Part shown: piece after piece, positions 1 to 62,804 of the stretch
How positions within the stretch are numbered: the first letter of the stretch is position 1
Layout of the letters: every line of letters begins with the position of its first letter
NCBI GenBank assembly: GCA_046293175.1
Contig: JBKBPM010000001.1
Span: 171,446 to 235,445 of the forward strand
Length of the DNA: 64,000 nt
Direction of reading: 5' to 3'
Source of the DNA: Minisyncoccia bacterium
Lineage (GTDB): Bacteria; Patescibacteriota; Minisyncoccia; Phycocordibacterales; UBA918
Made by a program: the position numbers and the translations under genes
Notes under the pieces: model-generated
What the model was told of the DNA's origin: nothing
The model's input: the letters and a program-made list of their open reading frames with translations, nothing else
Database searches by the model: none

Positions 1-496
1 ATTAATGAGGAACTCGACCAGACCTTCATTTCGCAGCATCTTCGCGATTTGATCAATCGCCCAACCTTTGCCAATGCCACCCAGGTCAAGGAGTCCGACT
101 GATAGTCGCCAGGTATCATGCAGGTAATCGATGTCGATAAGGGGATTACCGATCTCGACCGCTCGCTCCATCGCAATGAGCGAATAAGTACTATCATAGC
201 CGCGCGCAATGAGCGCGTCACCAACAAGGATATTAAAGGCGCCTTTAGTCTTGCGGTACATATCGCGGCCATGGCCGATGAGTGCCTTAAAATCGGCATC
301 AGTAGTGACGACGGTGCGTTCGCGATTGAGGGTGCCAACAAGGGTATCTTCCCTAAAGCGGGAAAAACGGTTCTCGATAGACAACAAGAGCGTCGTGATG
401 GAATTGCAGATCCCATCACGACGCTCTGTGCTTATGTTGTCGAAGACCTCAATCCACCATGTTGTCCCGAGGGCAGTGATGGTGATAGTAGGCATG
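1..496 (-). CDS. apbE: FAD:protein FMN transferase ApbE (partial; 3' end runs off the window)
   Basis: Translating the minus strand from the ATG at 496 gives ...LDLGGIGKGWAIDQIAKML..., which matches the ApbE GGIAKG signature region. The gene has no stop inside the window. No signal peptide is evident. Confidence 0.7.
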
Positions 497-501
497 ACTG
501 G

Positions 502-1101
502 TTAGTTGGCAGCGGAAGCTTTAATCTTGGCTACTGCCTCGTTGAAACCGCCAGTAGTAAGTGAGGCGCCACCAACGCGTGAGAGTCTAATCGCATCAAG
601 CTTCTTGCCAATCACCTGTGACTGGTACGCACTCATGAAGCGACTCTGATACTTACTTGATTCACTCACTTTGTCACCACCGTATGTGATTGAAGTGGCT
701 GTTACAATGTCGCCCTTAAGGGTGAGGGTGACCGCCATGGTGTGGTTTGAGTTTTCTGGAGCGCGGTAGGTAATGTTTGCCGTATGTGCGCCATCAGCGT
801 AGATGGTAGCCGGAGCTGCTGGGGTGGTAGGGGTAGTTGGAGTTGAAGGTGTTGCAGGGGTAGCGGCCGGTGTGTCAGCAACAGCTGTTGGGGTCGGGGC
901 ATCACCGGCTTCGGCAGGTACGTTATTACCAGTAGTTGCGTCGTCACCTTCTTCAGTTGGTACCGTGGTGCCGTCAGTAACCTCAGGATTGGCTGGTAAT
1001 GCAGTCTCTTCAATCGGAGTAACAGTTTCTTCGGGACGGAGGAAATACCCACCAAGCCCAATGGCAACCGCTAATCCGATAATAATAAGAACTATTGGCA
1101 T
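502..1101 (-). CDS. membrane-anchored FMN-binding-domain protein (candidate ApbE flavinylation substrate)
   Basis: The 199-aa ORF has an N-terminal TM helix, a Pro/Thr/Ala-rich linker and a C-terminal domain ending ...RVGGASLTTGGFNEAVAKI. That ending resembles the S/TGAT flavinylation motif of NqrC/RnfG-type FMN_bind domains. It lies immediately upstream of apbE on the same strand. Confidence 0.5.
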   Translation of the reverse strand: MPIVLIIIGLAVAIGLGGYFLRPEETVTPIEETALPANPEVTDGTTVPTEEGDDATTGNNVPAEAGDAPTPTAVADTPAATPATPSTPTTPTTPAAPATIYADGAHTANITYRAPENSNHTMAVTLTLKGDIVTATSITYGGDKVSESSKYQSRFMSAYQSQVIGKKLDAIRLSRVGGASLTTGGFNEAVAKIKASAAN

Positions 1102-1114
1102 AGAAATATCTTTT

Positions 1115-1187
1115 TAAGAGTAACAAAACAAGTATACAGGGAAGTTACTCTTGTGGCTATCGAGCGATGTATACTAAGAGTATATAC
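1115..1187. promoter_or_regulatory. palindromic candidate operators in a divergent promoter region
   Basis: An inverted repeat TAAGAGTAAC (1115-1124) pairs with GTTACTCTTG (1144-1153) across a 19-nt spacer. A second near-palindrome GTATACTAAGAGTATATAC lies at 1169-1187. Both sit between the divergent starts at 1101 (-) and 1196 (+). Confidence 0.3.
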
Positions 1188-1195
1188 AGAGTTTT

Positions 1196-2699
1196 ATGCA
1201 AAACGTTACACGCTTACCATTATTGTACTTAGATCGCACGCCGATGTATGGGGTTATTATTCAGGTTTTGGTTGCTACGTATGGTGTTGCTCTGATAGCT
1301 TCTCTTGGTGGCTATATTGGTTTTACACCATTAGAACTTATCCTCAGTGCTGTCACGATCATGATGACGGCGCTGTTCGTGAACGTACTTTGTGCCTCTG
1401 CCACCAAAGTGCCGATACAGCATTATTCTTCGGTTATCACGGCACTCATCCTCATATTTTTGCTTCTCCCATCAACTATGCCGCTAGATCTCTTTGCTTC
1501 TGCGGTTATTACTGCTCTCGCGATTGCGAGTAAATATGTGTTTGCCTACAAAAAGCAGCACCTTGTGAATCCAGTCGCGGCTGGTCTCGTGCTCGGCTCA
1601 CTGTTTGGATTTGGAGGTGGGGCTTGGTGGGTAGCATCAGCAATCTTGTTTGTACCAATTCTTATTGGTGGACTATTGGTGGCAAAAAAGGTGAAGCGAT
1701 TGGATATGGTGGCAGTTTTTTTTGGCGGTAGCTTTTGGCGTCTACATGATCCTGATGTGGAATGAACCACTCCCGATGTCTGAATTATTGGCAACCTTCT
1801 TCTTTTCATACCCCTATGTCTTTTTGGGATTCTTTATGCTCACGGAACCATTTACCATGCCGAGTCAAAAAAATACCCGGTATGTGTATGCTCTCGTTGT
1901 GGCCGTAGTAGCGTTTTTGCCTACTGTAGGCCCAATTAATTTCTCGCCGGAACTAGCACTGGTGATTGGTAACCTCGCACTAGCACCCTTTGCGCAACGA
2001 CAAAAGCTCATTTTGAAGCTTGGTGGCCTGCGGAAAATCACCTCGTCTATTTACGAGTTTTCCTTCCCAAAGCCGGCCGGATTTCAATTTAAGGCCGGTC
2101 AGTACCTCGAGTGGATGGTGCCGCACAAAAAAGCTGATAGTCGAGGTACTCGTCGTTACTTCACTATTGTCTCAGCTCCAGAAGAGGCAGAACTCCGTCT
2201 CGCCTTTAAGCTTCCTGAAAATGCCAGTAGCTACAAAAATGCCATGATAAACCTCAAGGCTGGCGATGTGGTCATTGGTTCGCAGCGCTCGGGCGATTTC
2301 TTATTACCTAAGAACAGCACAGAGAAACTTGGTTTTATTGCTGGTGGTATTGGGGTGACACCGTTTGTGAGCCATGTGTCATCGCTTGAAGCAAAACATG
2401 AACGCCGCGATATTGCCACTCTCTACTGCGTCGCAAATGCTGCCGATTTGGCTTATAGCGAGAAACTCCAGAGTGCCGGTCTCTTCGTGCCTGTGGTAGC
2501 CGGTGGCGAAGTGCCACCAGGAGGGGAATCTGGCTTTTTATCTGCGGATATCATCACGCGCCGGGTGCCAGACTACGCCTCACGCACTTGGTATATCTCC
2601 GGTCCACCAAAGATGGTTGACGCAGCCTATCATACCCTGCGCACTCTTGGTGTACCGGCGCGTCGTATCCACCGCGACTTTTTCCCAGGCCTCGCGTAG
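1196..2699 (+). CDS. polytopic membrane domain fused to an FNR-like FAD/NAD(P)-binding reductase, interrupted by a frameshift in a T8 run (1716-1723)
   Basis: ORFs 1196..1765 and 1722..2699 overlap by 44 nt. Both reading frames look like membrane protein across the junction, and deleting one T from the T8 tract joins them into a continuous ~500-aa product. The C-terminal half carries an RRYFTIVS (RxY[ST]) FAD-binding motif and a GGIGVTPF nucleotide-binding motif typical of ferredoxin-NADP reductase-like domains. Confidence 0.6.
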
Positions 2700-2732
2700 G
2701 GTCAACCGGGCTCGTCCCGTATACTTATCTAT

Positions 2733-4034
2733 ATGTACTTCTCACATAAAACGAGTAAGGCCATACCGAGTAGCGCGGTTGAGGTTCTCAGTGTCGAGCT
2801 AACACCATATCTCGCCTCACTCCGCCGGACAGTTGAACAAGGTGGCTATGCTACCCCTGAGGCACCACTCTCAGTCCCGACTGACGAATACATGCAGACA
2901 GCAGTTGAGGCGATACTCGACAAGGTCTATACGAAGTCTCTGCGTTTTGTCTTTGTCATTGGTATTGGTGGCTCTAATCTCGGCACGAAGGCAGTGTATG
3001 ATGCGATGGCGAGTGCTCGCGACCTTGCCCCGCACCACCAGCCGCGACTCATTTTTATTGATACAACTGATAGTGCACTTCTCGGAACCGCGCAGGCACT
3101 CATTAAAAAAGCGGAACACGCAAACGAAGTCCTTTTTATAATCATCAGTAAATCAGGTACTACCACTGAGACAATCGCGAACGCTGAGATACTCCTCGCT
3201 TCTTTTGCGGACCGCTTTGGTCGCAACGCCAGACGGGTGGTCGTCATGAGCGAGACGGGCTCGTCGCTTCTCGCCGCTGCGCGTGAGCAGCAGATGCACA
3301 CGCTTGATTTGCCACCGACGGTTGGTGGACGGTATTCAGTCTTTACGCCGGTGGGACTTCTACCGCTCGCCCTCATGGGCTTTGATGTTCGACAGATGCG
3401 GACGGTCGCACATACGAGAATTGAAAAATCACTCCATCCCGATGTGGTCTTAAATGATGCAGCCCTCTCAGCCCTGACCCAGTACTACTTTTATCGCGAC
3501 AATATTCGTCAGCACGACACCTTCGTCTTTACCCCGGCTCTTGAATCGGTTGGTAAGTGGTATCGACAACTCCTGGGAGAAAGTATTGGGAAGTCGGTCG
3601 TAGGGGATGATTCAAAGCGGATTGGTATCACGCCAACCGTGACCGTGGGTTCTACCGACCTCCACTCAGTGGGACAGCTCTATCTTGGCGGACCACGCGA
3701 TCGCCTCACCACTTTTGTGAGTGTGATGAGTCGTCCTGATGTTGCGATGCCAAGTGAGAGGGCTTGGCCTGATATTGTGCCGATGGTCAGTGGTAAAAGT
3801 GTAAATACCATCCTTAATGCGATAGAAGCGGGTACCAAAGCAGCGTATGATACGAATAACCTTCCGTACCTAGAGCTGAAGCTTGATACACTGACACCTG
3901 AAGCAATTTCGGACTTTATGCAATTTAAGATGTGCGAAATGATGATGCTCGGGCACTTACTCAAAGTAAATCCGTTTGATCAGCCGCATGTGGAGCAGTA
4001 TAAGACTGTCACCAAACAAATTTTGGGAGGTTAA
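2733..4034 (+). CDS. pgi: glucose-6-phosphate isomerase (short bacterial/archaeal type)
   Basis: The 433-aa product carries the GIGGSNLG and ISKSGTTTET motifs of phosphoglucose isomerase. Confidence 0.85.
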   Translation: MYFSHKTSKAIPSSAVEVLSVELTPYLASLRRTVEQGGYATPEAPLSVPTDEYMQTAVEAILDKVYTKSLRFVFVIGIGGSNLGTKAVYDAMASARDLAPHHQPRLIFIDTTDSALLGTAQALIKKAEHANEVLFIIISKSGTTTETIANAEILLASFADRFGRNARRVVVMSETGSSLLAAAREQQMHTLDLPPTVGGRYSVFTPVGLLPLALMGFDVRQMRTVAHTRIEKSLHPDVVLNDAALSALTQYYFYRDNIRQHDTFVFTPALESVGKWYRQLLGESIGKSVVGDDSKRIGITPTVTVGSTDLHSVGQLYLGGPRDRLTTFVSVMSRPDVAMPSERAWPDIVPMVSGKSVNTILNAIEAGTKAAYDTNNLPYLELKLDTLTPEAISDFMQFKMCEMMMLGHLLKVNPFDQPHVEQYKTVTKQILGG

Positions 4035-4189: not shown

Positions 4190-4414
4190 ATGCACGAAAC
4201 AAAACGTCGGAGTTTACTGAAAGGGCTTACCTGGCGCATCACGGCCTCGATCACGACGATGCTCATTGTGCTCATAATGACCGGAAACCTTACTCTAGTC
4301 GCTGGCGTCGGACTGGCTGATGTGACCCTTAAGGTCTTGTTTTACTACGTCCATGAGCGGCTATGGGGAAGGGTCCATTGGGGAATTCTTGGCCTGGAAC
4401 CTCATATTAAATAG
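4190..4414 (+). CDS. small membrane protein (DUF2061-like)
   Basis: The 74-aa ORF contains ...LTWRITASITTMLIV... and two TM helices. It sits immediately upstream of atpB, in the position often occupied by AtpI-like or DUF2061 proteins. Confidence 0.4.
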   Translation: MHETKRRSLLKGLTWRITASITTMLIVLIMTGNLTLVAGVGLADVTLKVLFYYVHERLWGRVHWGILGLEPHIK

Positions 4415-4435
4415 CATTATTACCACACCTCAGCG

Positions 4436-4463
4436 TTGCAAAACCTCGATTTTCTGGTATCAT
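4436..4463 (+). promoter_or_regulatory. sigma70-like promoter for the atp operon
   Basis: TTGCAA (4436-4441) is followed by a 16-nt spacer and then TGgTATCAT, an extended -10 at 4455-4463. Confidence 0.4.
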
Positions 4464-4502
4464 GCGGGCGCATAAGGTATCTCCTCGTGCGCTTTACTGT
4501 TC

Positions 4503-5291
4503 ATGTCACTAATCGCAACCGCTTACGCTGCTGAATCTGCCCATGGGGGTATTCACGTTGCTCTCGCACCTTACGTGGTGGGACATGTCTTTGGCGTACC
4601 AATTACCTCAACTTTGATTACCGCTTGGGTTGGGATGCTGATTTTGACCGTTATTGCCGTCCTCGTCCGGCACCGCCTCGCCCTGGTACCTGGCAAGCTC
4701 CAGAGTGTCATAGAAATGATGATTGGTGGCGTTTACGACTACATGGCTGACGTACTTGAGAGTCGCGCTCTGGCTCAGAAGTATTTCGGGGTTGTGATGA
4801 CGATTTTCATTTTTATCCTTACTCTCAACTGGTTTGGGCTTTTTCCGGGTGTTACTTCAATTGGACAGTATGTTGAATACAACGGTAGTGAAAAATTTAT
4901 TCCGTACCTCTATCCAGCCGCGACAGATCTCAATATCACCCTCGCATTTGCGCTGATTGCGTTCTTTACTATCCAATTTTCCGGTATCGCTGCTATTGGT
5001 GCGTTTAAGTACGCGGGGAAGTTTATTAACTTCTCTTCGCCTTTGGCGTTTGCTGTGGGTATCATTGAGCTTATCTCCGAAATCGCCCGCCTCATTTCGT
5101 TCTCATTCCGACTCTTTGGAAATATCTTTGCGGGGAAGACGCTCCTCGTCGTGATCATGTTCTTTGTGCCCTACGTGGTTCCTGTGCCAATTATGGCGTT
5201 TGAAGTCTTCGTCGGATTCATCCAAGCTTTTGTGTTTGCGATTTTGACGTTGTTCTTTATCAAGATTGCGACCGAAGAACCAGCACACTAG
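4503..5291 (+). CDS. atpB: F0F1 ATP synthase subunit a
   Basis: The polytopic membrane protein carries the RLFGNIFAG motif containing the essential Arg. Confidence 0.85.
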   Translation: MSLIATAYAAESAHGGIHVALAPYVVGHVFGVPITSTLITAWVGMLILTVIAVLVRHRLALVPGKLQSVIEMMIGGVYDYMADVLESRALAQKYFGVVMTIFIFILTLNWFGLFPGVTSIGQYVEYNGSEKFIPYLYPAATDLNITLAFALIAFFTIQFSGIAAIGAFKYAGKFINFSSPLAFAVGIIELISEIARLISFSFRLFGNIFAGKTLLVVIMFFVPYVVPVPIMAFEVFVGFIQAFVFAILTLFFIKIATEEPAH

Positions 5292-5301
5292 TGGCTGATA
5301 A

Positions 5302-5634
<333 letters not shown>

Positions 5635-5683
5635 TGATTCTAAAATTGGCACTCTGCGGCGTTGTTGCTCAAAAATTTTGTTC

Positions 5684-5710
5684 CATGTACCAATTTAGTA
5701 CACCTCACAA
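5684..5710. repeat. copy 2 of the recurring GTACA-N5-GTACACCTCA motif
   Basis: The sequence CATGTACCAATTTAGTACACCTCACAA lies within the 290-nt atpE-atpF spacer. Confidence 0.5.
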
Positions 5711-5810
5711 AATTTTCTCGCACGCCTTGCATAGTAACCAATTTAAGAACCCCTAGAACAATCGATGATATCGCAGCATTGACTTTGTCGCTGTGTAAAA
5801 AAATATTTTT

Positions 5811-5837
5811 CAATGTACATCAAAGTACACCTCAAAA
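5811..5837. repeat. copy 3 of the recurring motif (tandem partner of copy 2)
   Basis: The sequence is CAATGTACATCAAAGTACACCTCAAAA. Its flanks (AAAAATATTTTT ... AAAATATTTTTT) also resemble the flanks of copy 2, giving a ~50-nt unit repeated 128 nt apart. Confidence 0.5.
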
Positions 5838-5932
5838 TATTTTTTACTGGCTCCTTGTCACTGCCGCAATCTCATCAATTGTTGATTGATATAGATTAGC
5901 AGTAGAAAAAATTATCAGCTCACACTCCTCAC

Positions 5933-6382
5933 ATGGAAGAAATCATCAAAGCCTTTGGTATCGACGGACGACTCATTGTCATCCAGATTGTCAACTTCGC
6001 TATCCTCATGAGTATCTTGGGGTATTTCCTCTACACGCCAATCCTCAATCTTTTGAAGGAACGTGAAGAGAAAATTGCCAAAGGTATCAAAGATGCCGAA
6101 GCCGCGGCTAAAGCCAAAGCTGAAGCAGATCTTGAGAAGCAGGCGGTCCTCACCGCGGCTCACGACGAAGCGCGGGACATCAACGCGCGTGCCAAAGTAG
6201 CAGCTGACGAAAAGGCTCTCGGTATTGTTGGTGACGCCGAAGAAAAGGCGAATGCCATTGTGAAGAGTGCTGAACTGCGCGCCGCTGAAGCTGCTGATCA
6301 AATCAAAAAAGATGCCGAAGGCGAAATTGCGAAGATTGCTGTCCTTGCAGTTGAAAAGTTACTTCGTGAACAAGCTTCATAA
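5933..6382 (+). CDS. atpF: F0F1 ATP synthase subunit b
   Basis: The product has an N-terminal TM helix followed by a long Ala/Glu/Lys-rich coiled coil. Its position in the operon fits subunit b. Confidence 0.75.
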   Translation: MEEIIKAFGIDGRLIVIQIVNFAILMSILGYFLYTPILNLLKEREEKIAKGIKDAEAAAKAKAEADLEKQAVLTAAHDEARDINARAKVAADEKALGIVGDAEEKANAIVKSAELRAAEAADQIKKDAEGEIAKIAVLAVEKLLREQAS

Positions 6383-6388
6383 AACACC

Positions 6389-6766
6389 ATGATTAAAGAC
6401 TACGTCCTTGCCCTCAAAGCCGCGCTTGCTTCCGGTCAAAAGCCAGAGACGGTTTTTGCTAACCTAAGTCGGGTACTCGCACGTCGTGGACATAGTCAGC
6501 TCTTGGGTCGTATCTTGCGTATCCTCGAGCGTGAGCTTGGTCGTGGCGCTACTCATCTTGAACCAACTCTCGTGGTCGCACGTGAGAAAGATACTAAGTC
6601 GCCACTGGTGGCTAAGCTCATGAAAGCGCTTGGTGTCGAAGGAACTCCTCGTGTCATTGTCGACGACAGTGTCATTGGTGGAGCGAAGCTAAGTCACAAC
6701 CACACCGAAATCGATGCGACGTACAAAACTGCCCTTATTAACCTTTATCAAGCTATCACCAAATAA
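6389..6766 (+). CDS. atpH: F0F1 ATP synthase subunit delta (short form)
   Basis: The 125-aa product ends ...[31 protein letters not shown], which matches the delta/OSCP C-terminal region. It sits between atpF and atpA. Confidence 0.65.
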
Positions 6767-6777
6767 TCCTTATTCGT

Positions 6778-8343
6778 ATGAGTACACCTATCATTGAACG
6801 TATCAAAAAAGAAATCGCTGGTCTCGAAATCAAAGCTCTGCCAACTTCGGTTGGTACGGTGGTTGGTGTCGGTGACGGTATTGCCGAAATCGACGGGCTC
6901 GTCTCGGCGCAGATGATGGAAATGGTAGTGTTTGCGACCGCTGAAGGTGCGACCCTCGAAGCGGCGCTTGCGAGTGAGACGGCGCTCTATGGTCTCGTCC
7001 TCAACCTCGAAGAGGATAGTGTTAAGGTGGTGATCTTGGGTGATAGTGGGCTTGTCCGTGAAGGTATGACGGTGTACCGAACCGAGAAGCTTCTCTCGGT
7101 TCCAGTGGGTGAGGGGATTGTGGGTCGAGTGGTAGATGCACTGGGGGCACCAATTGATGGAAAGGGAGCCTTCAAAACAGATCGTGATATGCCGATCGAA
7201 CGCGTCGCGTACGGGGTAATGGATCGTTCGAGTGTGAACGAACCGATCCATACTGGTATCAAGGCGATTGACTCAATGATCCCCATTGGACGTGGACAAC
7301 GCGAACTCATCATTGGTGACCGTGGGACAGGGAAGACCACCATCGCTATCGACACTATCATCAACCAGAAGTACGAACCAAAAGAAAAGCGTCCAATCTG
7401 TATCTACGTAGCCATTGGTCAGAAACGCTCAAAGACAGCGACCATCATGGCCGAGCTCGAAAAGGCTGGTGCGATGGAGTATACCACCATTGTAGCGACT
7501 TCAGCCTCTGAAGCTTCACCAATGCTCTTCCTTGCACCATTTACTGGTGCCGCAATTGGTGAGTACTTTATGGAACAGGGACGGGATGTGCTCGTGGTAT
7601 TTGATGATCTCTCAAAGCATGCGGTAGCGTACCGTCAGATGTCACTGCTTCTTCGTCGTCCACCAGGACGTGAAGCGTATCCAGGAGATATTTTCTACCT
7701 TCACTCACGACTTCTCGAGCGTTCAGCAAAGCTCTCAAAGGAACTTGGTGGCGGATCTATCACTGCGCTCCCAATTATCGAAACCCAGGAAGGAGACGTG
7801 TCAGCCTATATTCCAACCAATGTGATTTCCATCACCGACGGACAGATCTTCCTCGAAGGTGATCTCTTCAACAAGGGTATCCGTCCCGCGTTGAACGTCG
7901 GTATCTCGGTATCACGAGTAGGTTCGTCAGCTCAGACTAAGGCCATGAAGGCAGTGGCTGGCAAGATTCGTCTTGAACTTGCGCAATTCCGTGAACTTGA
8001 AGCCTTTATGCAGTTTGCGAGTGACCTTGATGAGGACACTAAGCAGCGTATCGACAGTGGACGCAAGTACGTCGAGCTCTTGAAGCAGACCCAAAGTAAC
8101 CCAATGCCGTTCTACAAGCAGGTGGTCTCTATTTACGGAGCGAACACTGGCCTCCTTGATGGTGCAGCCGCGACCTCGGTACAGGCCATCGAGCGTGAGT
8201 TCCATGACTTCATCGAACGTGACCGTAAGGATATCCTGATTGAAATCGAATCAACTCGAGCACTTTCAGATGATCTAAAAGCAAAAATCGATACGGCCAT
8301 TGTGGATTTCAAGGAAGCCAATGCATCACTCTACACAGCCTAA
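6778..8343 (+). CDS. atpA: F0F1 ATP synthase subunit alpha
   Basis: The product carries a GDRGTGKT P-loop and is alpha-like throughout its length. Confidence 0.95.
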
Positions 8344-8363
8344 AGAAGTAACTATTTTCTACC

Positions 8364-10726
<2,363 letters not shown>

Positions 10727-54776: not shown

Positions 54777-57700
54777 ATGAATTTTATTTTCATGAGGAGG
54801 TTTCATTCATTTTCTAATATGCAAAGTCGTTATTCTTTGGTTGCGGTAGCAAGGACAGTGTTAGTATCGTTTCTAACACTGTCTTTTTTGTTAGTGTCGA
54901 GTATTCCTGCCGAAGTTTTTGCTGAGGAAAGTGCTGGTACAACCGAGATATCAAATGCTACCACTCCACCCGCGGACACCCCTGTTAGTGAAATCGAGAA
55001 TACGAATCCTGAAACTGTAACACCAAATGATGATACAGAGCCTCCAGTTGAAGAATCTGCAGAACAGCTTACAGAAGTTTCTGATCCCGAAGCAGTAGAT
55101 ACAGAAGAGGATCCTGAAAAAGCACCCGTAGAAGAATTAGAGCCAGAATCAATGGCAGCCATGGGTGCAGGTGGTGCTTCTGGGTCTGGTGACGCTTCAC
55201 CACTCAAGACTTCTTTAGTTGATTCAACCAGCGGCTCATTTCAAACAAATTATGGCATTGTGGTTCCGCCTGGTCGAAACGGCATGCAACCGAACCTGAG
55301 TCTGGGGTACGACGGGGGAGCAAACAGTCAAACAAGTGTATTTGGGTACGGTTGGGATATTAGTATCCCATACATTTCACGTATGAATAAAACTGGTAGT
55401 GAAAATCTCTACGCCACTTCCAGTTATTTCTACTCGTCACTTTCTGGCGAATTGGTTCCTACTGGAGTAACTAATGAATATCGTGCTCGAGTCGAATCAG
55501 GAAGTTTCCTAAAATATGTATATTCCAATAGTGTTTGGACAGTAACAGACAAGTCTGGCCGGACGTATACATTTGGCTCAGCGAGTACTACCAGGCAAGA
55601 TAACCCTAGTGATAGTAACCAGATATACCGCTGGTATATTGCCGAAGAGCGTGACACTAATAATAATGCAATCAGTTACAGTTACTATAAAAATGCAGGG
55701 CAGATTTATCCTGATACCATTTATTACACCAAAAATGGTGCAGATAATGGTATTTTTTCAGTACAGTTTGAACGTGAATCACGGACAGATGTCGTAACAT
55801 CGTACCAAGCTCGTTTTGCTGTGAAAAGTAACTATCGAATTAAAAAGATAGTTGCTTATGTTGATGGTGTGGCTGCACGAAGCTATGCGCTTGCTTATAC
55901 AAATGGTGATAACCAAAAACGTTCACTTCTTTCAACAATTACTGAATCTGGCACTGAAGGAAGTGTTACAACTACGCGGCTAGCTCAATCATTCGAATAC
56001 AAAAATACTAGCACTGAGGGTTGGACTTCAACATCAACATGGTCTACTCCCGAACCATTTTCAAGCAATAGTCTTGATACAGGGTTGCGACTAGTTGACG
56101 TAAACGGTGACAGTTACCAAGATTTAGTTCGCTTCTACGGCACTCAAGGTGGTCAAGAATTTAAATCAATTTATATTAATAACGGATTAAATGGTTGGAC
56201 TAGTACAACGACTTGGAACTGGTCAGATATGAACTTATGGTTTTCAGTGGAAGGTTCTACACAAAATTCACGTAATGATTATGGAACAAGATTCCTTGAT
56301 GTTAATGGTGATGGTTTAACCGATGCTATTACTGGATTTGATAACCTTGATGGTTGGAGTGACTACAAGGTTGTCTATATTAATAATGGAAGCGGCTGGG
56401 CAAGTTCAACCTGGGTTTTGCCAGTGTTTATTACAAAAAAATTAGGCGGTAGCTCAACTTATGACTTGGGTGTACGAACAGGAGATATTAATGGTGATAG
56501 ATTGCCAGATATAGTCGTATCTTACGTAAATGGTTCTGGTGCTACAAGTCAAGAAGTTTACTTAAATAATGGTCAAAATGGGTGGAGCCAAACAACATCA
56601 TGGGTAGTGCCTGAGCCATTTACAAATTGTGCAACTTGTACAAATCCTGGTCTAGATTTAGGAACACACCTAATTGATGTTAATGGTGATGGTCTCGATG
56701 ATGTTGTTAGAAGCTACTCAACATCCGGAACAAGCACCAATAAAGTTTATCTCAATACTGGTACAAATTGGGTACTGGACAGCAGTGTCCAGTTACCTAC
56801 TTACTTTGTTATGACAGGCGACTCTGGCCTACGTTGGGTAGAAGTAAATGGTGATGGTTTGATTGATCTTGTTAGAAACGCAACTACATCTAGAGTAACT
56901 TATTTGAATAGTGGTACAGGTTGGACAAGCCTTGGTCAGCTTCCACCAACTCAAATGCCATTTATTACAACATCAGGTGATAGTGGTGTTCGTGCCGTTG
57001 ATATTGACGGAGATGGTCAATCAGATCTAATTGGAAATACTGGCAGCACTACTTATCTTAATAGTCGAGGTTTTGGTGATTCTCTAACACAAATCACTTT
57101 TCCTCAAGGTGGTAAAATTATAGCTTCATATCAGGGTTCTGCTGAATATCGAAGCGGAAGTCAAATCTTAAACCCAAAAATTCCCTACACCTTCACAACA
57201 GTCTCACAGATACAATATGACTCCAATAATGATGCTATATGGACTGAATCATATCTATACGAAGATGGATTCTATCACTATGCGAGTACGAGTTTTCGTG
57301 ACCGTACTTTTTCAGGTTTTGGCAAAATAACCAAAACCAGTCCTCGTGCTAAGACAGTATCGTATTACCACCAGAATAATGACACTAATAGTAGCAATGG
57401 TGAGACGACAGATTCATACGCCAAGATTGGGCTTGAGTATAAAACGTTCGTCAACGACCTTGCTGGCAATAATTATATTACAAATGTGACAAAATGGTCT
57501 GAATCAGCATTGCCCGGTGGCGCGTCATATATAAGCCAACAGTCACAGGCAACACTATCGCATGATGGCGATAGTGATCATCGGGACATGGCTGTTGAAT
57601 ATAGCTACGATACCAATAATGGTAATCTGCTACAAAAAATTGAATATGGCGAAGTTACTGGAGCTACAGATGGCACCTTTACTGATACCGGCACGGACAA

Positions 57701-60700
57701 ATATACTACCGCATTTACATACGGCGCCAGCTCAACAAATCCGTTATTTACACTAACGATTCAAGCTTCAACTACAGACCAGCAAAACGTCCTAACAAGA
57801 TTAACTAAATACTATTACGATAATAGCACTTTTGGCAGCGTGACTAAAGGTAACCTTACCAAACAAGAAGACTGGGCCACTTCAACCACATATAGTACCC
57901 GTCAATGGGAATATAATACTTTCGGCCTAGTAGGTACGACAACTGATCCACGCGGTAATGTATCAAGTGTGCGATATGACTCTCATAATTTATATCCCTC
58001 ACTCGCTAAAAATGCCCTTGGACACATAACGACCTCAACTTATGATTATTCAAACGGACAGGTCAAAACAAATATTGATGCTAATAGCGCACTGTATACT
58101 TTCAATTATGATGGCCTTGATAGACTGCTTGAAGAGTATGTGCCTGATCCAAACAATGGTAGCTCCACTGTGCTTAAAAATGCATACACCTATTTCGACA
58201 CCAGTTTGCCATATCGTGTTCACCAGTCACGATACTTAAACCAGTATTTAACAGTAGATTCTAATACATATCTCGATGGATTTGGACAAGTCATTCAAAC
58301 TCGTCAAGATATGGAACAGTTCAATAAGTATGCGGTAACTGACTTTGTGTACGATGATGGTGTGTTGATTCGTGAATCCGTCCCGTACCAAGCAAATGGA
58401 TCTGGCTATAGTCCGTCAACGAGCAATACAAACCGACTACGTACTTATAGTTATGATGCGCTGGATCGAAAAATTACCATAGCTGATATGCGTGGTACGA
58501 GCACCCTCGCATACGATCAATGGCAGACGCTTGCGACTGATCCATTGTCTCGTACAAAAAAGACAAATAATGATGCGTACGGAAACCTCGTGAGTGTAAT
58601 TGAACGCAATAGTGGTGTTGATTACACGACAACGTATACCTATGACTACGGAGGTAAACTGACCAGCCTCACAGACGCCCTTAGTAATGTACGTAAATTC
58701 ACTTACGATGGATTAGGTCGACGTCTCTATGCAGAAGATCTTCATGTGGCGACCAGTAGTTCGTTTGGTGTTTGGCGCTATCAATACGACCTGGCAGGTA
58801 ATCTCGGTACTTCTACCAACCCGCGAGGACAAATTGTAGCGTATACGTACGATGCACTTAATCGAACATTGACCGAAAATGCAGCTAGTTCAACCGGAGT
58901 TGAAACTTCTTATACCTACGACTCCTGTACTAAGGGTGTTGGTAAACTTTGTACAGTTGTAGTTGCATTTGCCACTACAACCTATGGTTACAACAACCTT
59001 GGTTCGATGGCAACTGAAACCAAACAAATTCGCGGAACAACCTACACAACCAGTTACCAGTATGACCGACAAGGTAATCAGACAATGGTGCAGTACCCTG
59101 ACAATTCCGTAGTTCGCAATACCTATAATAATGCTGGCTTACTCGATAAAGTTGAACAAAAAGAAAATGGCGGACTATTCAAGAACGTTGTTACAGCTCT
59201 AGATTACAGTCCTGCCCAGAAAGTGACCCTAGAAGCTATAGCGAACGGAGCAACTACTACCAAAACCTACGATTCAATACATCGTCTTACTAATATTTTG
59301 ACCACAACCACTGGAACCACTACACCAAGTCAATGTCCTAGTTATATTCTTGGATCCGGTCTTGATACTAACCTGATATCGTATTGGAACCATAATGAGT
59401 ATTCTTCTGGTTCAGGCGCAGTTACTAGGTTTGATAGTAAAGGAACTAATCACCTAACAGATTTCAACACAACTCTGTCGACTGTAGGTATGATTGATAC
59501 TGCGTCAGATTTGGAAGTTGCAAATACAGAACGACTTACTATTACAGATGCGGCACAGACAGGTCTTGACACTCAAAATGACATGACCTTCGCAACTTGG
59601 CTTAAGTTTGAGAGTCTGCCTGGTACAAACGGACGTATGTACGTAGTCCAAAAAGAAGATATCTTCAAATTTGCACCAGATTTCGATGTAAATGGTACTG
59701 ACTACTTGCGATTGTATCTCCGTGATGCATCAGGTTACTATCACAATTCGGTTTCGTGGGTGCCATTCGTTGATACATGGTATCATGTTGCATTTACCAG
59801 AAATCAAACAACCGGAGCCCTTAAATTCTATGTGAATGGTCAACAGCAGGGTTCAACAATAATGACGGGTAGAACAGCATCTCTGTTAAATTCTGTTGAA
59901 GATTTCAATATCGGTGCTAATCCTGGAGAATTTGATGGTGCGGTTGATGAGACAGCAATTTGGTCACGCGTACTGACTGATACTGAAATCGCCTGTCTCT
60001 ATAATAATGGTGGTGGCATTTCATACAGCTTGGGTGGAATAGGTGGTGGCGGTGAAGCAATGAGACTTCTTGCCATGTCTGAGTCTGAACAAATACTGAA
60101 ATCCGCCGACTATTCGGGATCTGATACACAAGAAATAACTGTCAAAACCGATATAACTGCTTCTTCGACAATTGCAGCCTATGATGTATATAAACAGCAA
60201 CTTAACTCAGCTGATGCAAGTGAAAAGGCAACTCTAAAAGGCCAGATGATTGCTGAAAAAGTAATATCAGGCAGACGAGTTGACCGAAAAGAGTTTAAGA
60301 TAGATTTGTTTGGTGTTGAGCCAATAGATGGAGGACTACAGGTGTACCTTCGCGCCTTTGATGCCCAAGGCAATCAACTTGGCTTTGGTAAAGATGGCAC
60401 GATTGATATTGAACGCTTCAAGATATACAATCCGCCAATTAGCGTGCCTGATGGTACTTACCGAGATGAAGAAATTGAAAAACTTAGTGGAGGTACCCAA
60501 ATTATTAAGTCCCCTAACTTTAAAGATGATCCTGAGGAAGCTTTATATCAGGTATTAGAACAAACAATCAAACTTACTGGTAAGAGTGGTACAAAAATCG
60601 TCCCTAAAAAAATCGGTCGAACCACTAGTGTGTTCTATCCAGATGCGAACCCAGAGAGTTCTTCAGTTGACGGATGGACTCAGTATGAAAGTACACAAAT

Positions 60701-62804
60701 TTCGTGGTCAGCTATTCGCACGGCAAATGGAACTGGATCTGGAGATACTGATGCAACACGATACGTATTGGCAGCTGCCGCTGGTACAGCGACTAGTACA
60801 TTTAATAACCTTCGTCGTGGAATCTTCGTCTTTAACACTGCACCGATTGCAGACACCGATTACATTAGTGGAGCGACACTCTCATTTGTTGCTACAGCAA
60901 AAGGTGATCATGATGCAATAAATGAACGCTTTGCGAACCTGACGAGTGCGTCAACTGCATCAAATGTCGCGATTGCTGCTTCTGATTATCAGTCTCAGTC
61001 GGTACATACCACAAAACTTTCTACGGATAAAAGCATCAAATACGATATAGTTGCTGATAGTAGCACCTATACTGACTGGACACTAAATAGCGATGGTTTG
61101 GCTAACATCAGTACCAGTTCGGTTTCTAAGTTTGGTCTAAGATTTGTTGAAGATATTAGCAGTACTACCATGCCATGGAACTCTGGTTACAATTACGGCA
61201 TATCGATCAGACTGGCAGATACAGCCAATACTTCACTTGATCCAAAACTAGTAGTTGAACACAGTGCTACTTCATCACCAGTAGCAACAACCACCACCAT
61301 TCAAAACATCGCCTACACCTACGATGCGGTGGATAATATTACGCAGATTACTGACACATCAACAACTTTAGCAGCGAAGACTGTACAATTTACTTATGAT
61401 GACCTTAACCGCCTCACGAGAGCCTCAACTACAGTTGCTTCTTCTACACCATTCCTAGAGCAGTACACATACAATGCGATTGGTAATCTACTGACCAAAA
61501 CTGGACAGGGGACATACAGCTACGCTGGTACTGGCTTCGCGAACCCACACGCCCCAACCACCATTGGTACTTCCACCCTCACCTACGACCAAAATGGCAA
61601 CCTCGCCTCATACAACGGTGTGACGTATACCAGTAACTACAAAAACCAACTCACCACCCTCACCAAAAACAGCACCACCACCAAGTACACCTACGACCAC
61701 CAGGGCCAGCGCCTCGAAAAAGCCCGGGGCACCGGTACTACCACCTACGCCTCTGGCGGGTACGAAGTAGCACCAACCGGCGTCACCAAATACATCTACG
61801 CTGGTGGGGAACTAGTAGCCACCATCGCTGGTATAGGAACTACTACTACTACTACTACCTCCTATATCCATCGGGACCACCTATCCTCTACGAATGTAAC
61901 TACGAACCAAAGTGGAGGAGTATCTACCGTCTTAGACTACTACCCGTACGGCTCCACTCGTATCGAGACTGGCACACCACCTCAGAAACAATATATTGGC
62001 CAATACGATGACTCTGAATCAGATCTGGCGTACCTTAATGCGAGGTACTACGACCCAACACGTGGCCAATTTACCTCACAAGACCCCATGCACTGGGCGA
62101 TACCTGCCAATCTCATCGTCGACCCACAATTACAGAACTCGTATGGGTATGCCAAAAATAATCCGATTATCTATAAGGATCCAAATGGTGATATTCCTGT
62201 ACTAGTTGCTCTGTTTGGGGGCGCTGCACTGGCTGGTGCGATTGGTCAAGGTATCGAAGATATTGCGTCAGGTCAACTTTCTGGTTGGCAAGATTATGCA
62301 GGTGCAGCTGCTGGTGGTATGACAGGAATGGCTGCAGCACTAACAACGAAAAATCCTTTTGCCATTGGTGGAGTAACCTCGGGTAGTGAACAATTGTATA
62401 CAAATCTTCTTACAGGTGAAGAGGCAATGAGTGATGTGTTTTCTGAATCAGGTAAAGGCATAATTTTTGGTGGATTTATTGATTTGCGTATCCCTCTACT
62501 GTCTAAAGGTGCTAATAATATTTCAGCACGTACTCAAAGCATTATCACGAAGGTATCAAATGGTACAGTGTCAAATGCTTCTTTAAAAACTGTAAGAAAT
62601 GTCAGTATTTCTCAGTCTGTAAACAGTACCGCTCAATCTACATACAACGGTGTTGAGCATCGTTTATCAAACTCACAAGTAAAAAATGCGTCAAACAATA
62701 TAGAAAAGGCAACCAAAGCTTTTCAGAGCGGTAATTATACTGTAAGTCTCCGTTATTTGGAGAAAGCCAATCAGAATTTAAACAGTAACAAAAAGAAAAA
62801 ATAA
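54777..62804 (+). CDS. Rhs/YD-repeat polymorphic toxin (2675 aa) with a signal peptide, SpvB-like N-terminal region, FG-GAP-like repeats, YD repeats interrupted by a LamG-like domain, an Rhs core terminus and a Gly-zipper C-terminal domain
   Basis: The SpvB-like region reads ...GRNGMQPNLSLGYDGGANSQTSVFGYGWDISIPYISR. Six or more VDVNGDGLxD repeats span 56.09-57.04 kb. Many YTYDxxGNL YD repeats follow. A LamG-like block (...WYHVAFTRNQTTGALKFYVNGQQQG...DETAIWSRVLTDTEI) sits at about 59.33-60.02 kb. The core terminus reads ...LAYLNARYYDPTRGQFTSQDPM. The C-terminal ~235 aa are Gly/Ala-rich (GGAALAGAIGQGI...GAAAGGMTGMAAAL). Confidence 0.85.
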   Translation: MNFIFMRRFHSFSNMQSRYSLVAVARTVLVSFLTLSFLLVSSIPAEVFAEESAGTTEISNATTPPADTPVSEIENTNPETVTPNDDTEPPVEESAEQLTEVSDPEAVDTEEDPEKAPVEELEPESMAAMGAGGASGSGDASPLKTSLVDSTSGSFQTNYGIVVPPGRNGMQPNLSLGYDGGANSQTSVFGYGWDISIPYISRMNKTGSENLYATSSYFYSSLSGELVPTGVTNEYRARVESGSFLKYVYSNSVWTVTDKSGRTYTFGSASTTRQDNPSDSNQIYRWYIAEERDTNNNAISYSYYKNAGQIYPDTIYYTKNGADNGIFSVQFERESRTDVVTSYQARFAVKSNYRIKKIVAYVDGVAARSYALAYTNGDNQKRSLLSTITESGTEGSVTTTRLAQSFEYKNTSTEGWTSTSTWSTPEPFSSNSLDTGLRLVDVNGDSYQDLVRFYGTQGGQEFKSIYINNGLNGWTSTTTWNWSDMNLWFSVEGSTQNSRNDYGTRFLDVNGDGLTDAITGFDNLDGWSDYKVVYINNGSGWASSTWVLPVFITKKLGGSSTYDLGVRTGDINGDRLPDIVVSYVNGSGATSQEVYLNNGQNGWSQTTSWVVPEPFTNCATCTNPGLDLGTHLIDVNGDGLDDVVRSYSTSGTSTNKVYLNTGTNWVLDSSVQLPTYFVMTGDSGLRWVEVNGDGLIDLVRNATTSRVTYLNSGTGWTSLGQLPPTQMPFITTSGDSGVRAVDIDGDGQSDLIGNTGSTTYLNSRGFGDSLTQITFPQGGKIIASYQGSAEYRSGSQILNPKIPYTFTTVSQIQYDSNNDAIWTESYLYEDGFYHYASTSFRDRTFSGFGKITKTSPRAKTVSYYHQNNDTNSSNGETTDSYAKIGLEYKTFVNDLAGNNYITNVTKWSESALPGGASYISQQSQATLSHDGDSDHRDMAVEYSYDTNNGNLLQKIEYGEVTGATDGTFTDTGTDKYTTAFTYGASSTNPLFTLTIQASTTDQQNVLTRLTKYYYDNSTFGSVTKGNLTKQEDWATSTTYSTRQWEYNTFGLVGTTTDPRGNVSSVRYDSHNLYPSLAKNALGHITTSTYDYSNGQVKTNIDANSALYTFNYDGLDRLLEEYVPDPNNGSSTVLKNAYTYFDTSLPYRVHQSRYLNQYLTVDSNTYLDGFGQVIQTRQDMEQFNKYAVTDFVYDDGVLIRESVPYQANGSGYSPSTSNTNRLRTYSYDALDRKITIADMRGTSTLAYDQWQTLATDPLSRTKKTNNDAYGNLVSVIERNSGVDYTTTYTYDYGGKLTSLTDALSNVRKFTYDGLGRRLYAEDLHVATSSSFGVWRYQYDLAGNLGTSTNPRGQIVAYTYDALNRTLTENAASSTGVETSYTYDSCTKGVGKLCTVVVAFATTTYGYNNLGSMATETKQIRGTTYTTSYQYDRQGNQTMVQYPDNSVVRNTYNNAGLLDKVEQKENGGLFKNVVTALDYSPAQKVTLEAIANGATTTKTYDSIHRLTNILTTTTGTTTPSQCPSYILGSGLDTNLISYWNHNEYSSGSGAVTRFDSKGTNHLTDFNTTLSTVGMIDTASDLEVANTERLTITDAAQTGLDTQNDMTFATWLKFESLPGTNGRMYVVQKEDIFKFAPDFDVNGTDYLRLYLRDASGYYHNSVSWVPFVDTWYHVAFTRNQTTGALKFYVNGQQQGSTIMTGRTASLLNSVEDFNIGANPGEFDGAVDETAIWSRVLTDTEIACLYNNGGGISYSLGGIGGGGEAMRLLAMSESEQILKSADYSGSDTQEITVKTDITASSTIAAYDVYKQQLNSADASEKATLKGQMIAEKVISGRRVDRKEFKIDLFGVEPIDGGLQVYLRAFDAQGNQLGFGKDGTIDIERFKIYNPPISVPDGTYRDEEIEKLSGGTQIIKSPNFKDDPEEALYQVLEQTIKLTGKSGTKIVPKKIGRTTSVFYPDANPESSSVDGWTQYESTQISWSAIRTANGTGSGDTDATRYVLAAAAGTATSTFNNLRRGIFVFNTAPIADTDYISGATLSFVATAKGDHDAINERFANLTSASTASNVAIAASDYQSQSVHTTKLSTDKSIKYDIVADSSTYTDWTLNSDGLANISTSSVSKFGLRFVEDISSTTMPWNSGYNYGISIRLADTANTSLDPKLVVEHSATSSPVATTTTIQNIAYTYDAVDNITQITDTSTTLAAKTVQFTYDDLNRLTRASTTVASSTPFLEQYTYNAIGNLLTKTGQGTYSYAGTGFANPHAPTTIGTSTLTYDQNGNLASYNGVTYTSNYKNQLTTLTKNSTTTKYTYDHQGQRLEKARGTGTTTYASGGYEVAPTGVTKYIYAGGELVATIAGIGTTTTTTTSYIHRDHLSSTNVTTNQSGGVSTVLDYYPYGSTRIETGTPPQKQYIGQYDDSESDLAYLNARYYDPTRGQFTSQDPMHWAIPANLIVDPQLQNSYGYAKNNPIIYKDPNGDIPVLVALFGGAALAGAIGQGIEDIASGQLSGWQDYAGAAAGGMTGMAAALTTKNPFAIGGVTSGSEQLYTNLLTGEEAMSDVFSESGKGIIFGGFIDLRIPLLSKGANNISARTQSIITKVSNGTVSNASLKTVRNVSISQSVNSTAQSTYNGVEHRLSNSQVKNASNNIEKATKAFQSGNYTVSLRYLEKANQNLNSNKKKK

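Follow-up and report, generated by a model that had tools for sequence, protein, structure and literature searches.

The first 2,699 nucleotides of a 64,000-nucleotide stretch of a Minisyncoccia bacterium genome (contig JBKBPM010000001.1, positions 171,446 to 235,445; the whole stretch is referred to as the window) contain three genes that, judged from their sequences, probably specify an NQR/RNF-like flavin-based transmembrane electron-transfer module of Candidatus Paceibacteria (Patescibacteria/candidate phyla radiation, CPR). The genes encode the flavin transferase ApbE, a membrane-anchored carrier predicted to hold flavin mononucleotide (FMN) covalently, and a fusion of an NqrB/RnfD-like membrane domain to an FNR-type domain for flavin adenine dinucleotide (FAD) and NAD(P)H. 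The usual picture of the CPR/Patescibacteria is one of fermentative symbionts that lack electron-transport chains, and a widespread three-gene device by which electrons of NAD(P)H could be passed across the membrane is one of the few candidate systems for redox balancing or energy conservation in these organisms. The system has already been predicted in print, and this module matches the prediction; the window adds no new kind of system, and the copy is ordinary apart from a frameshift and a leaderless ApbE. Established in the present analysis are the identities of the three proteins, the conservation of the triplet, a variant motif in the carrier, the loss of the flavinylation loop found in RnfD, and the lack of any leader on ApbE. 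Three points are added to the published picture: a whole clade of modules has a non-canonical flavinylation motif and would probably escape surveys that rely on Pfam; a leader is missing from the cognate ApbE in every case, which makes the place of flavinylation a question; and the module frequently adjoins ATP synthase operons of two types.

Conservation of the three-gene module across Patescibacteria

When one genome per GTDB species was scanned, 80 loci were obtained; with the close relative L001 added, a set of 81 was analysed with our own open reading frame (ORF) calls and hidden Markov models. The 80 loci come almost entirely from metagenome-assembled genomes (MAGs) of Patescibacteria, among them Paceibacteria, Kaiserbacteria, Nomurabacteria, and bins labelled 'Saccharibacteria'. 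The apbE gene adjoins the fusion gene in 71 of the 81 loci, and a gene for an FMN_bind or FMN_bind-like protein was found in 70, always directly upstream of apbE and beside the fusion gene. L075 (JBEBJM010000009.1) carries the label 'Nitrospira sp.'; its module is typically Patescibacterial, with co-directional carrier, ApbE, and fusion genes, and the contig is probably mis-binned.

Two clades can be distinguished. Clade A, to which the window belongs, combines a carrier bearing the motif R-V-G-G-A-S with an ApbE of about 292 amino acids, and the carrier and apbE genes are as a rule transcribed divergently from the fusion gene. Clade B (L054, L056, L059, L060, L063, L065–L074, L076, L078, L079, L082, and L083) has an FMN_bind carrier with the canonical motif, a compact leaderless ApbE of about 250 amino acids, and three co-directional genes. 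ApbE subtype and carrier motif appear to co-vary between the clades. From the sequence properties of its carriers we infer that clusters of clade A were probably under-counted in earlier surveys.

The reductase is a fusion of NqrB/RnfD-like and FNR-type domains

After repair of the frameshift described below, the fusion protein comprises 500 amino acids, of which residues 1 to about 268 make up the membrane domain and residues from about 270 to 500 the FNR-type FAD/NAD(P)H domain. The repaired protein matches PF03116 (NQR2_RnfD_RnfE) with an E value of 6.5e-9 (36 bits versus a cut-off of 27.7); for the unrepaired membrane ORF the E value is only 0.0092. PF00175 (NAD_binding_1) is matched at 32.9–34 bits versus a cut-off of 22, with 32.9 bits obtained on the repaired protein. 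In searches with a whole-fusion profile and with Foldseek, RnfD and NqrB were not among the matches listed, which were dominated by FNR domains, and a profile of the N-terminal part only (270 residues, 25 loci) was therefore used. This resolved the link to RnfD, which was the sole PDB family matched (8ahx_D, E value 1.2e-4), with FFMLTEPFTMP of the fusion aligned to FFIATDPVTSP of 8ahx_D. For the C-terminal half, sequence and fold comparisons alike give matches to FNR-type reductases, among them the FAD/NAD domain of NqrF. The original prediction, made from the DNA letters alone, had described a polytopic domain joined to an FNR reductase and had listed the NQR2_RnfD_RnfE model among those to search with; the fusion is borne out, and the polytopic domain does belong to that family by the PF03116 match at 36 bits and by 8ahx_D, but the gene had been read as a single ORF and the frameshift that splits it at a run of eight T residues (T8) was overlooked.

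More than 5,359 homologues of the fusion, counted as protein clusters at 90% identity, were found, nearly all of them about 500 amino acids long; one of these, P0001, is intact and 97% identical to the protein of the window. The AlphaFold2 (AF2) model of the fusion has a mean predicted local distance difference test (pLDDT) score of 87, and its helices, taken together with the charge distribution, indicate about 10 transmembrane (TM) segments with the N and C termini both inside. The model predicts that the FNR domain is cytoplasmic and that a vestigial FMN pocket loop, GFGGGAWW, lies outside. This loop stands at the place where RnfD and NqrB have their covalent-FMN loop. In the window fusion and in all aligned relatives, the segment that follows HxxNP has shrunk to GSLFGFGGGAWW and contains no [S/T]GA[S/T]. 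The membrane domain has lost its own covalent-FMN loop and probably uses a flavin that is bound non-covalently.

The carrier is assigned to the FMN_bind family by profile and position

The carrier encoded at 502..1101 (199 amino acids) consists of a signal-anchor TM helix (residues 1–21), a linker (residues 22–97), and a C-terminal domain (residues from about 98 to 199). The helix, which reads MPIVLIIIGLAVAIGLGGYF from residue 3, has a Kyte–Doolittle (KD) hydrophobicity of 2.6–2.7; the 76-residue linker contains 15 Pro, 19 Thr, 13 Ala, and 13 Asp/Glu and no Lys; and the C-terminal domain of about 100 residues bears LSRVGGASLTTGG. Direct assignment against Pfam and NCBIfam gave no match for the window carrier. 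Weak matches to PF04205 (E value ≤1) were obtained for 19 of 40 carrier homologues, the best at 1.4e-5. An hhalign comparison was made between the domain alignment of clade A and that of the sister-clade carriers in the same genomic position, all 14 of which match PF04205 (14 of 14, best E value 2.1e-10); it returned a probability of 94.9% with an E value of 4.4e-8 over 94 columns. The AF2 model of the carrier, with pLDDT of 81–97 in the domain, gave three chains of 3o6u as its top PDB matches in Foldseek (E value 0.02–0.05, probability 0.97–1.0), and 3o6u is the archetypal flavinylated FMN-bind1 structure in Huang et al. 2024 (PMC11334425). Searches of PDB sequences with phmmer and with the domain profile of the FMN-like domain gave nothing relevant, the sole match being a spurious one to flagellin (E value 1.2). 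Because of the weak PF04205 matches within the family, the position shared with the sister-clade carriers, the hhalign result, and the similarity of the AF2 model to 3o6u, the carrier is judged to be a divergent FMN_bind domain protein of the NqrC/RnfG-like type.

The residues V176, G178, A179, and S180 are invariant across the 40 carrier homologues, and R175, G177, L181, and T182 are nearly so. Ser180 is paired by hhalign with the flavinylated Thr or Ser of the sister-clade motif ..VSGA[T/S]... The published flavinylation consensus is D-x-x-[S/T]-G-A-[S/T], in which the Asp is described as 'strictly conserved' (PMC12052999). The original prediction had placed an FMN-binding membrane protein upstream of apbE and had remarked that its GGASLTTGG motif resembles the flavinylation site. 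Position, TM anchor, and homology to FMN_bind agree with the first of these claims, but a direct PF04205 match is lacking; for the second, Ser180 aligns with the modified residue, but the full consensus is absent. That prediction had also stated that a lack of any FMN_bind hit for this protein would count against it, and taken literally no such hit was found, the homology being shown by other means.

A further protein, P0174 (283 amino acids), contains two tandem FMN_bind-like domains, each with R[VI]GGASLT, and is predicted to be a di-flavinylated variant of the carrier.

ApbE lacks a leader throughout the module family

Residues 1–165 of ApbE, the part encoded in the window, match PF02424 with an E value of 8.9e-20, as anticipated for a partial ApbE on the minus strand that runs off the left edge. 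The missing C terminus was recovered from a contig that is 100% identical, L084, and the complete protein of 292 amino acids matches PF02424 with an E value of 1.6e-33 over residues 9–265, which cover profile positions 1–257 of 266. The nearest solved relatives of the full-length protein are the ApbE structures 4xgw and 3pnd, with 6nxi also aligning, and the alignment to the solved ApbEs begins at about their residue 23, past their lipoprotein signal. An N-terminal lipoprotein or secretion signal is typical, although not universal, for ApbE. No signal peptide, lipobox, or TM segment was found in the window ApbE. The Pfam core begins at residue 9, that is, 8 residues after the start, and an in-frame stop lies 2 codons 5' of the ATG, so there is no space for a leader. 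The absence of an evident signal peptide, remarked on in the earlier reading of this sequence, proved to be shared by all 70 loci compared: the 70 ApbEs begin at most a few residues from the conserved core, and four apparent N-terminal extensions are non-hydrophobic over-extensions of the ORF into the upstream gene. The leaderless ApbE is a conserved property of the Patescibacterial module.

The carrier gene and apbE of the window share a reading frame and are separated by TAA and two codons. Readthrough of this stop codon, giving a carrier–ApbE fusion in which ApbE would be carried outside, was considered and rejected: among relatives the two genes are 0, 3, or 6 nucleotides apart or overlap by 4 nucleotides, the frames vary, and no fused ORFs were seen. 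The variation in spacing and frame indicates that the in-frame arrangement is coincidental.

Located 68–108 nucleotides into the apbE coding sequence is a perfectly paired 18-bp hairpin, followed by a T-rich tail, which was flagged as terminator-like. Its minimum free energy (MFE) is −30.5 kcal/mol versus −8.2 ± 2.4 for shuffled sequences, and it is kept in L001, L004, L006, L046, and L007, with 6 of the 18 pairs changed on both sides yet still pairing across the six sequences. The hairpin may be an intragenic attenuator or a translation brake that sets the ApbE:carrier ratio by limiting the expression of ApbE.

Proposed mechanism and topology

In the proposed mechanism, NAD(P)H would be oxidised at the C terminus of the fusion, in its cytoplasmic FNR-type FAD domain, and the electrons would traverse the membrane through the NqrB/RnfD-like domain, probably by way of a non-covalent flavin, to reach the FMN covalently held on Ser180 of the carrier outside the membrane. 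This FMN, taken from FAD, would be attached by the co-transcribed ApbE, and the tethered FMN domain would pass its electrons to an extracytoplasmic acceptor. The long acidic Pro/Thr linker may let the FMN domain move back and forth between the pocket in the membrane and acceptors farther away. A chain from NAD(P)H through FAD and the membrane to covalent extracytoplasmic FMN had been put forward at the outset; the verified homologies of its components argue for it, and it is the same chain as that proposed in PMC8238504 and PMC11334425.

The anchor of clade A has no Lys or Arg before the helix and a net charge of −2 after it; that of clade B has +2.2 Lys/Arg before the helix. On account of these flanking charges the FMN domain of the carrier is predicted to face out in both clades. 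The opposite arrangement would be a wholly cytoplasmic chain, in which a cytosolic ApbE flavinylates a cytoplasm-facing FMN_bind domain and the module is a membrane-associated intracellular NAD(P)H-dependent reductase rather than an exporter. Such a chain would agree with the lack of a hydrophobic leader in 70 of 70 ApbEs beside the fusion gene, and cytosolic ApbEs that act on cytosolic substrates are documented (PMC12052999). We nevertheless consider it very unlikely, as the positively charged n-region and hydrophobic helix of clade B and the acidic flank after the helix of clade A both predict a domain outside, an acidic Pro/Thr-rich linker of 76 residues is typical of extracytoplasmic stalks, and the polytopic membrane domain would be purposeless if both redox partners stood on the same side. 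The FMN pocket of NqrB/RnfD lies on the outer face in structures of Na+-NQR, which also counts against the cytoplasmic arrangement. A published AlphaFold-multimer model likewise docks the flavin site of the partner at the outer-face pocket (PMC11334425).

For an outward-facing carrier the main difficulty is how a leaderless ApbE meets an external substrate, and three possibilities can be named. Flavinylation may take place before or during export of the carrier, which would spare the export of FAD; ApbE is able to modify a 7-residue tag in unstructured contexts. ApbE may itself be exported by an unconventional route. Least likely, the carrier may face the cytoplasm after all, in conflict with the anchor charges and with the pocket position derived from homology.

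Several observations weigh against the assignment of the three genes to an electron-exporting module. The window carrier has no match to PF04205 even at an E value of ≤1, the fold support for it from Foldseek is weak (E value 0.02), and an hmmsearch of PDB sequences with the carrier domain profile recovered neither NqrC nor RnfG. The segment S174-R-V-G-G-A-S180 keeps the G-A-S of the flavinylation motif but has, like the rest of its clade, Ser in place of the consensus Asp and Gly in place of the [S/T] at −3; a change of Asp to Ala in a model ApbE substrate had only a minor effect (review PMC12052999). An export signal is absent from 70 of 70 related full-length ApbEs (51 + 19), which is hard to reconcile with a substrate outside the cytoplasm. 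Within ±6 kb of the module no acceptor gene is evident, and experimental work on any NQR/RNF-like system member was not found in the literature. Finally, the frameshift in the reductase gene is seen in an independent assembly as well as in the window.

A frameshift in the reductase gene

The fusion gene of the window is broken into ORFs 1196..1765 (189 amino acids) and 1722..2699 (325 amino acids), which lie one frame apart and meet at T8. Removal of one T gives a continuous protein of 500 amino acids, with the junction passing through the hydrophobic helix MVAVFLAVAFGVYMILMW. The loci L001, L002, and L003, which encode P0001 and are 96% identical in nucleotide sequence, have T7 where the window has T8, and T8 is the sole net frame-breaking indel in the first 8 kb. 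T8 recurs in L084, a contig that an independent Logan assembly produced from run SRR31360863 and that shows 100% identity to window 1..3562, so the extra T is not particular to one assembler. Either the module has been recently inactivated, or it is expressed only via slippage, or T8 is a sequencing error. A programmed frameshift or slippage site was examined as a candidate and rejected, T7 being present only in the closest relatives and the tract being interrupted in orthologues at 77–90% identity.

Given the frameshift, a non-functional module in this genome is a serious possibility. Were the step from T7 to T8 a real mutation, the membrane domain would be truncated after about 175 residues and cut off from the FNR domain, and the system would be dead here. 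The presence of T8 in both the window and the independent k-mer assembly of SRR31360863 favours this, as does the lack of other evident homopolymer-associated split genes in the 64-kb window, which speaks against a generally error-ridden assembly. The same gene is also broken at a different homopolymer in another MAG of 82% identity (L008:255-1756), where a −1 shift results from A6 versus the A7 of window positions 1867–1873; this second break is either a recurrent homopolymer error or a slippage-prone inactivation of the fusion gene. Set against these points, the 326 codons past the shift are still open with 97% protein identity to the intact orthologue, and both partner genes are intact. Homopolymer length is moreover the commonest sequencing artefact, the same reads probably underlie the Logan contig, and the synonymous and non-synonymous differences from L001 are too few to show relaxed selection. 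We therefore regard a pseudogene as plausible but somewhat short of probable.

Gene layout, neighbourhood, and the ATP synthase

The features of the module are collected in Table 1. The carrier gene lies immediately 5' of apbE, with a gap of 6 nucleotides. A single sigma-70-like match, no better than chance, occurs in the divergent region between the two transcription units (1159..1131, minus strand).

Table 1. Position, strand, and basis of the module features in the window
Feature	Position	Strand	Basis
apbE (FAD:protein FMN transferase), codons 1–165 of 292	1..495	-	Pfam PF02424; truncated by left window edge
18-bp hairpin and T-rich tail inside 5' part of apbE	387..427	-	Terminator-like flag, MFE, compensatory changes
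Gene for NqrC/RnfG-like flavin carrier, 199 amino acids	502..1101	-	ORF; divergent FMN_bind domain (assigned from sequence)
Ser180 codon, predicted FMN attachment site in variant motif S-R-V-G-G-A-S	562..564	-	Conservation and profile alignment
Divergent intergenic region, 94 bp, presumed promoters for both transcription units	1102..1195	.	Gene coordinates
Gene for fusion of NqrB/RnfD-like membrane domain and FNR domain	1196..2699	+	Split ORFs 1196..1765 and 1722..2699
T8 homopolymer, one T more than close relatives, frameshift site	1716..1723	+	Alignment with T7 contigs

The neighbours of the module in the window genome are DPBB_1, HD, and MGMT genes on one side and pgi, a DUF2061 gene, and an F-type ATP synthase on the other. 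The ATP synthase operon begins at 4503, 1.8 kb past the module, in a region that spans 4190–10726 on the plus strand. In the subset of 45 loci whose flanks extend for at least 4 kb in each direction, ATP synthase genes were found within 6 kb in 23, in four gene arrangements and with both F-type and V/A-type operons; the loci concerned fall in the range L001–L057, plus L079. This adjacency is compatible with a bioenergetic link, e.g. with a minimal NQR-like ion pump.

In its full form, the latter proposal would have an NqrB/NqrC/NqrF(FAD)-like minimal pump couple the oxidation of NAD(P)H to the translocation of Na+ or H+ and so energise the adjacent ATP synthase in hosts without a respiratory chain. 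NqrB and RnfD are proposed ion-conducting subunits of NQR and RNF, and the invariant membrane-embedded TEP motif of the fusion corresponds to the TDP of RnfD; ATP synthase genes in 23 of the 45 well-flanked loci, in several arrangements and beside two operon types, point the same way. The argument is one of synteny, however, among related small genomes in which gene order may be inherited, and about half of the loci have no nearby ATPase. Subunits of the NqrD/E type are absent. A coupled pump thus appears unlikely. The combination of this idea with that of early flavinylation, in which the R-V-G-G-A-S carrier would be flavinylated in the cytoplasm before or during export, with no need for an FAD exporter, and the two-subunit complex would act as a primary ion pump for the adjacent F- or V-type ATP synthase, is decidedly unlikely. 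Electron transfer to extracytoplasmic FMN is the reading retained for the module.

Some further observations were made in the neighbourhood. The small DUF2061 membrane protein (window 4190..4414) is a frequent neighbour of the module. A membrane-anchored His-rich protein of about 219 amino acids without a Pfam match is encoded just beyond apbE in 12 loci (L022:2517-3176(-), L009, L010, L012, L019, L057, and others) and is a possible partner or metal-binding acceptor outside the cytoplasm; this protein is absent from the 6 kb to the left of the module in the window genome, where the DPBB_1 protein is found instead. Divergence from L001 is uneven over the syntenic block, with 74 of 433 codons differing in pgi (window 2733-4034) and 33 of 500 in the fusion gene. 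A very large ORF of 2,675 amino acids is located near the right end of the window (54777-62804, plus strand).

Comparison with known systems

The ApbE of Klebsiella pneumoniae is, like that of the module, an ApbE-family transferase without a signal peptide. Its substrate is a soluble cytosolic protein, the NADH:fumarate reductase, whereas the substrate in the module is predicted to be membrane-anchored and extracytoplasmic.

The likeness to flavin-based electron export in Gram-positive bacteria, to which attention had been drawn in the original prediction, holds as a concept but not in its components. In the extracellular electron transfer (EET) locus of Listeria (FmnB/PplA/Ndh2/EetA/EetB/DmkA/DmkB), the ApbE-family protein FmnB flavinylates the surface-tethered FMN_bind protein PplA, and electrons from NADH are delivered to extracellular acceptors. 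The membrane step in Listeria is carried out by a type-II NADH dehydrogenase, a demethylmenaquinone pool, and EetA/B, whereas a single RnfD–FNR fusion would take this place in the module. FmnB and PplA are lipoproteins with export signals, unlike the leaderless ApbE of the module. Neither Ndh2, EetA/EetB, and DmkA/DmkB nor lipoproteins of the PplA or FmnB type were found among the called neighbours (±6 kb) or the conserved neighbour families.

Closer parallels exist with Na+-NQR and RNF. The membrane domain has its homologous counterpart in NqrB/RnfD, the carrier in NqrC/RnfG, and the FAD/NAD(P)H domain in the C-terminal part of NqrF, and ApbE serves as maturation factor in both cases. The module differs in having two subunits, in the lack of a 2Fe-2S domain on the FNR part, and in the lack of a covalent-FMN site in the B/D-like domain. 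No genes for NqrA/D/E or RnfA/B/C/E were found within 6 kb of the window module or among the conserved neighbours in the 81 loci. Electron flow in the module is presumed to be one-way and outward, in contrast to the semicircular return to quinone or NAD+ of the larger complexes.

The closest match is the NQR/RNF-like system of Méheust et al. 2021 (eLife, PMC8238504), defined as flavinylation-associated clusters with a fusion of PF03116 and PF00175, where association means an ApbE and/or FMN_bind gene within five genes. Actinobacteria and the candidate phyla radiation were named as the groups in which such clusters 'primarily' occur (PMC8238504). In Huang et al. 2024 (mSystems, PMC11334425) the two-subunit complex was modelled, the flavinylation site of NqrB/RnfD was noted as not conserved, and the covalent FMN of the carrier was suggested to sample a non-covalent flavin pocket of the B/D-like subunit. 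Our literature searches on ApbE with Patescibacteria, and on RnfD with CPR, surfaced no other paper on this module. The window genes share with the published system an ApbE, a membrane-anchored NqrC/RnfG-like FMN_bind subunit, and a PF03116–PF00175 fusion in which the flavinylated Thr of NqrB/RnfD is gone. As in the published clusters, apbE and an FMN_bind-like gene stand beside the fusion gene, here across a divergent promoter region. They differ in that the FMN_bind domain of the window clade escapes Pfam, in the R-V-G-G-A-S motif, and in the leaderless ApbE, and this copy is frameshifted. With more than 5,359 protein clusters at 90% identity, the family also greatly exceeds the 127 clusters of the published account. 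In both, electrons are proposed to run from NAD(P)H to extracytosolic FMN.

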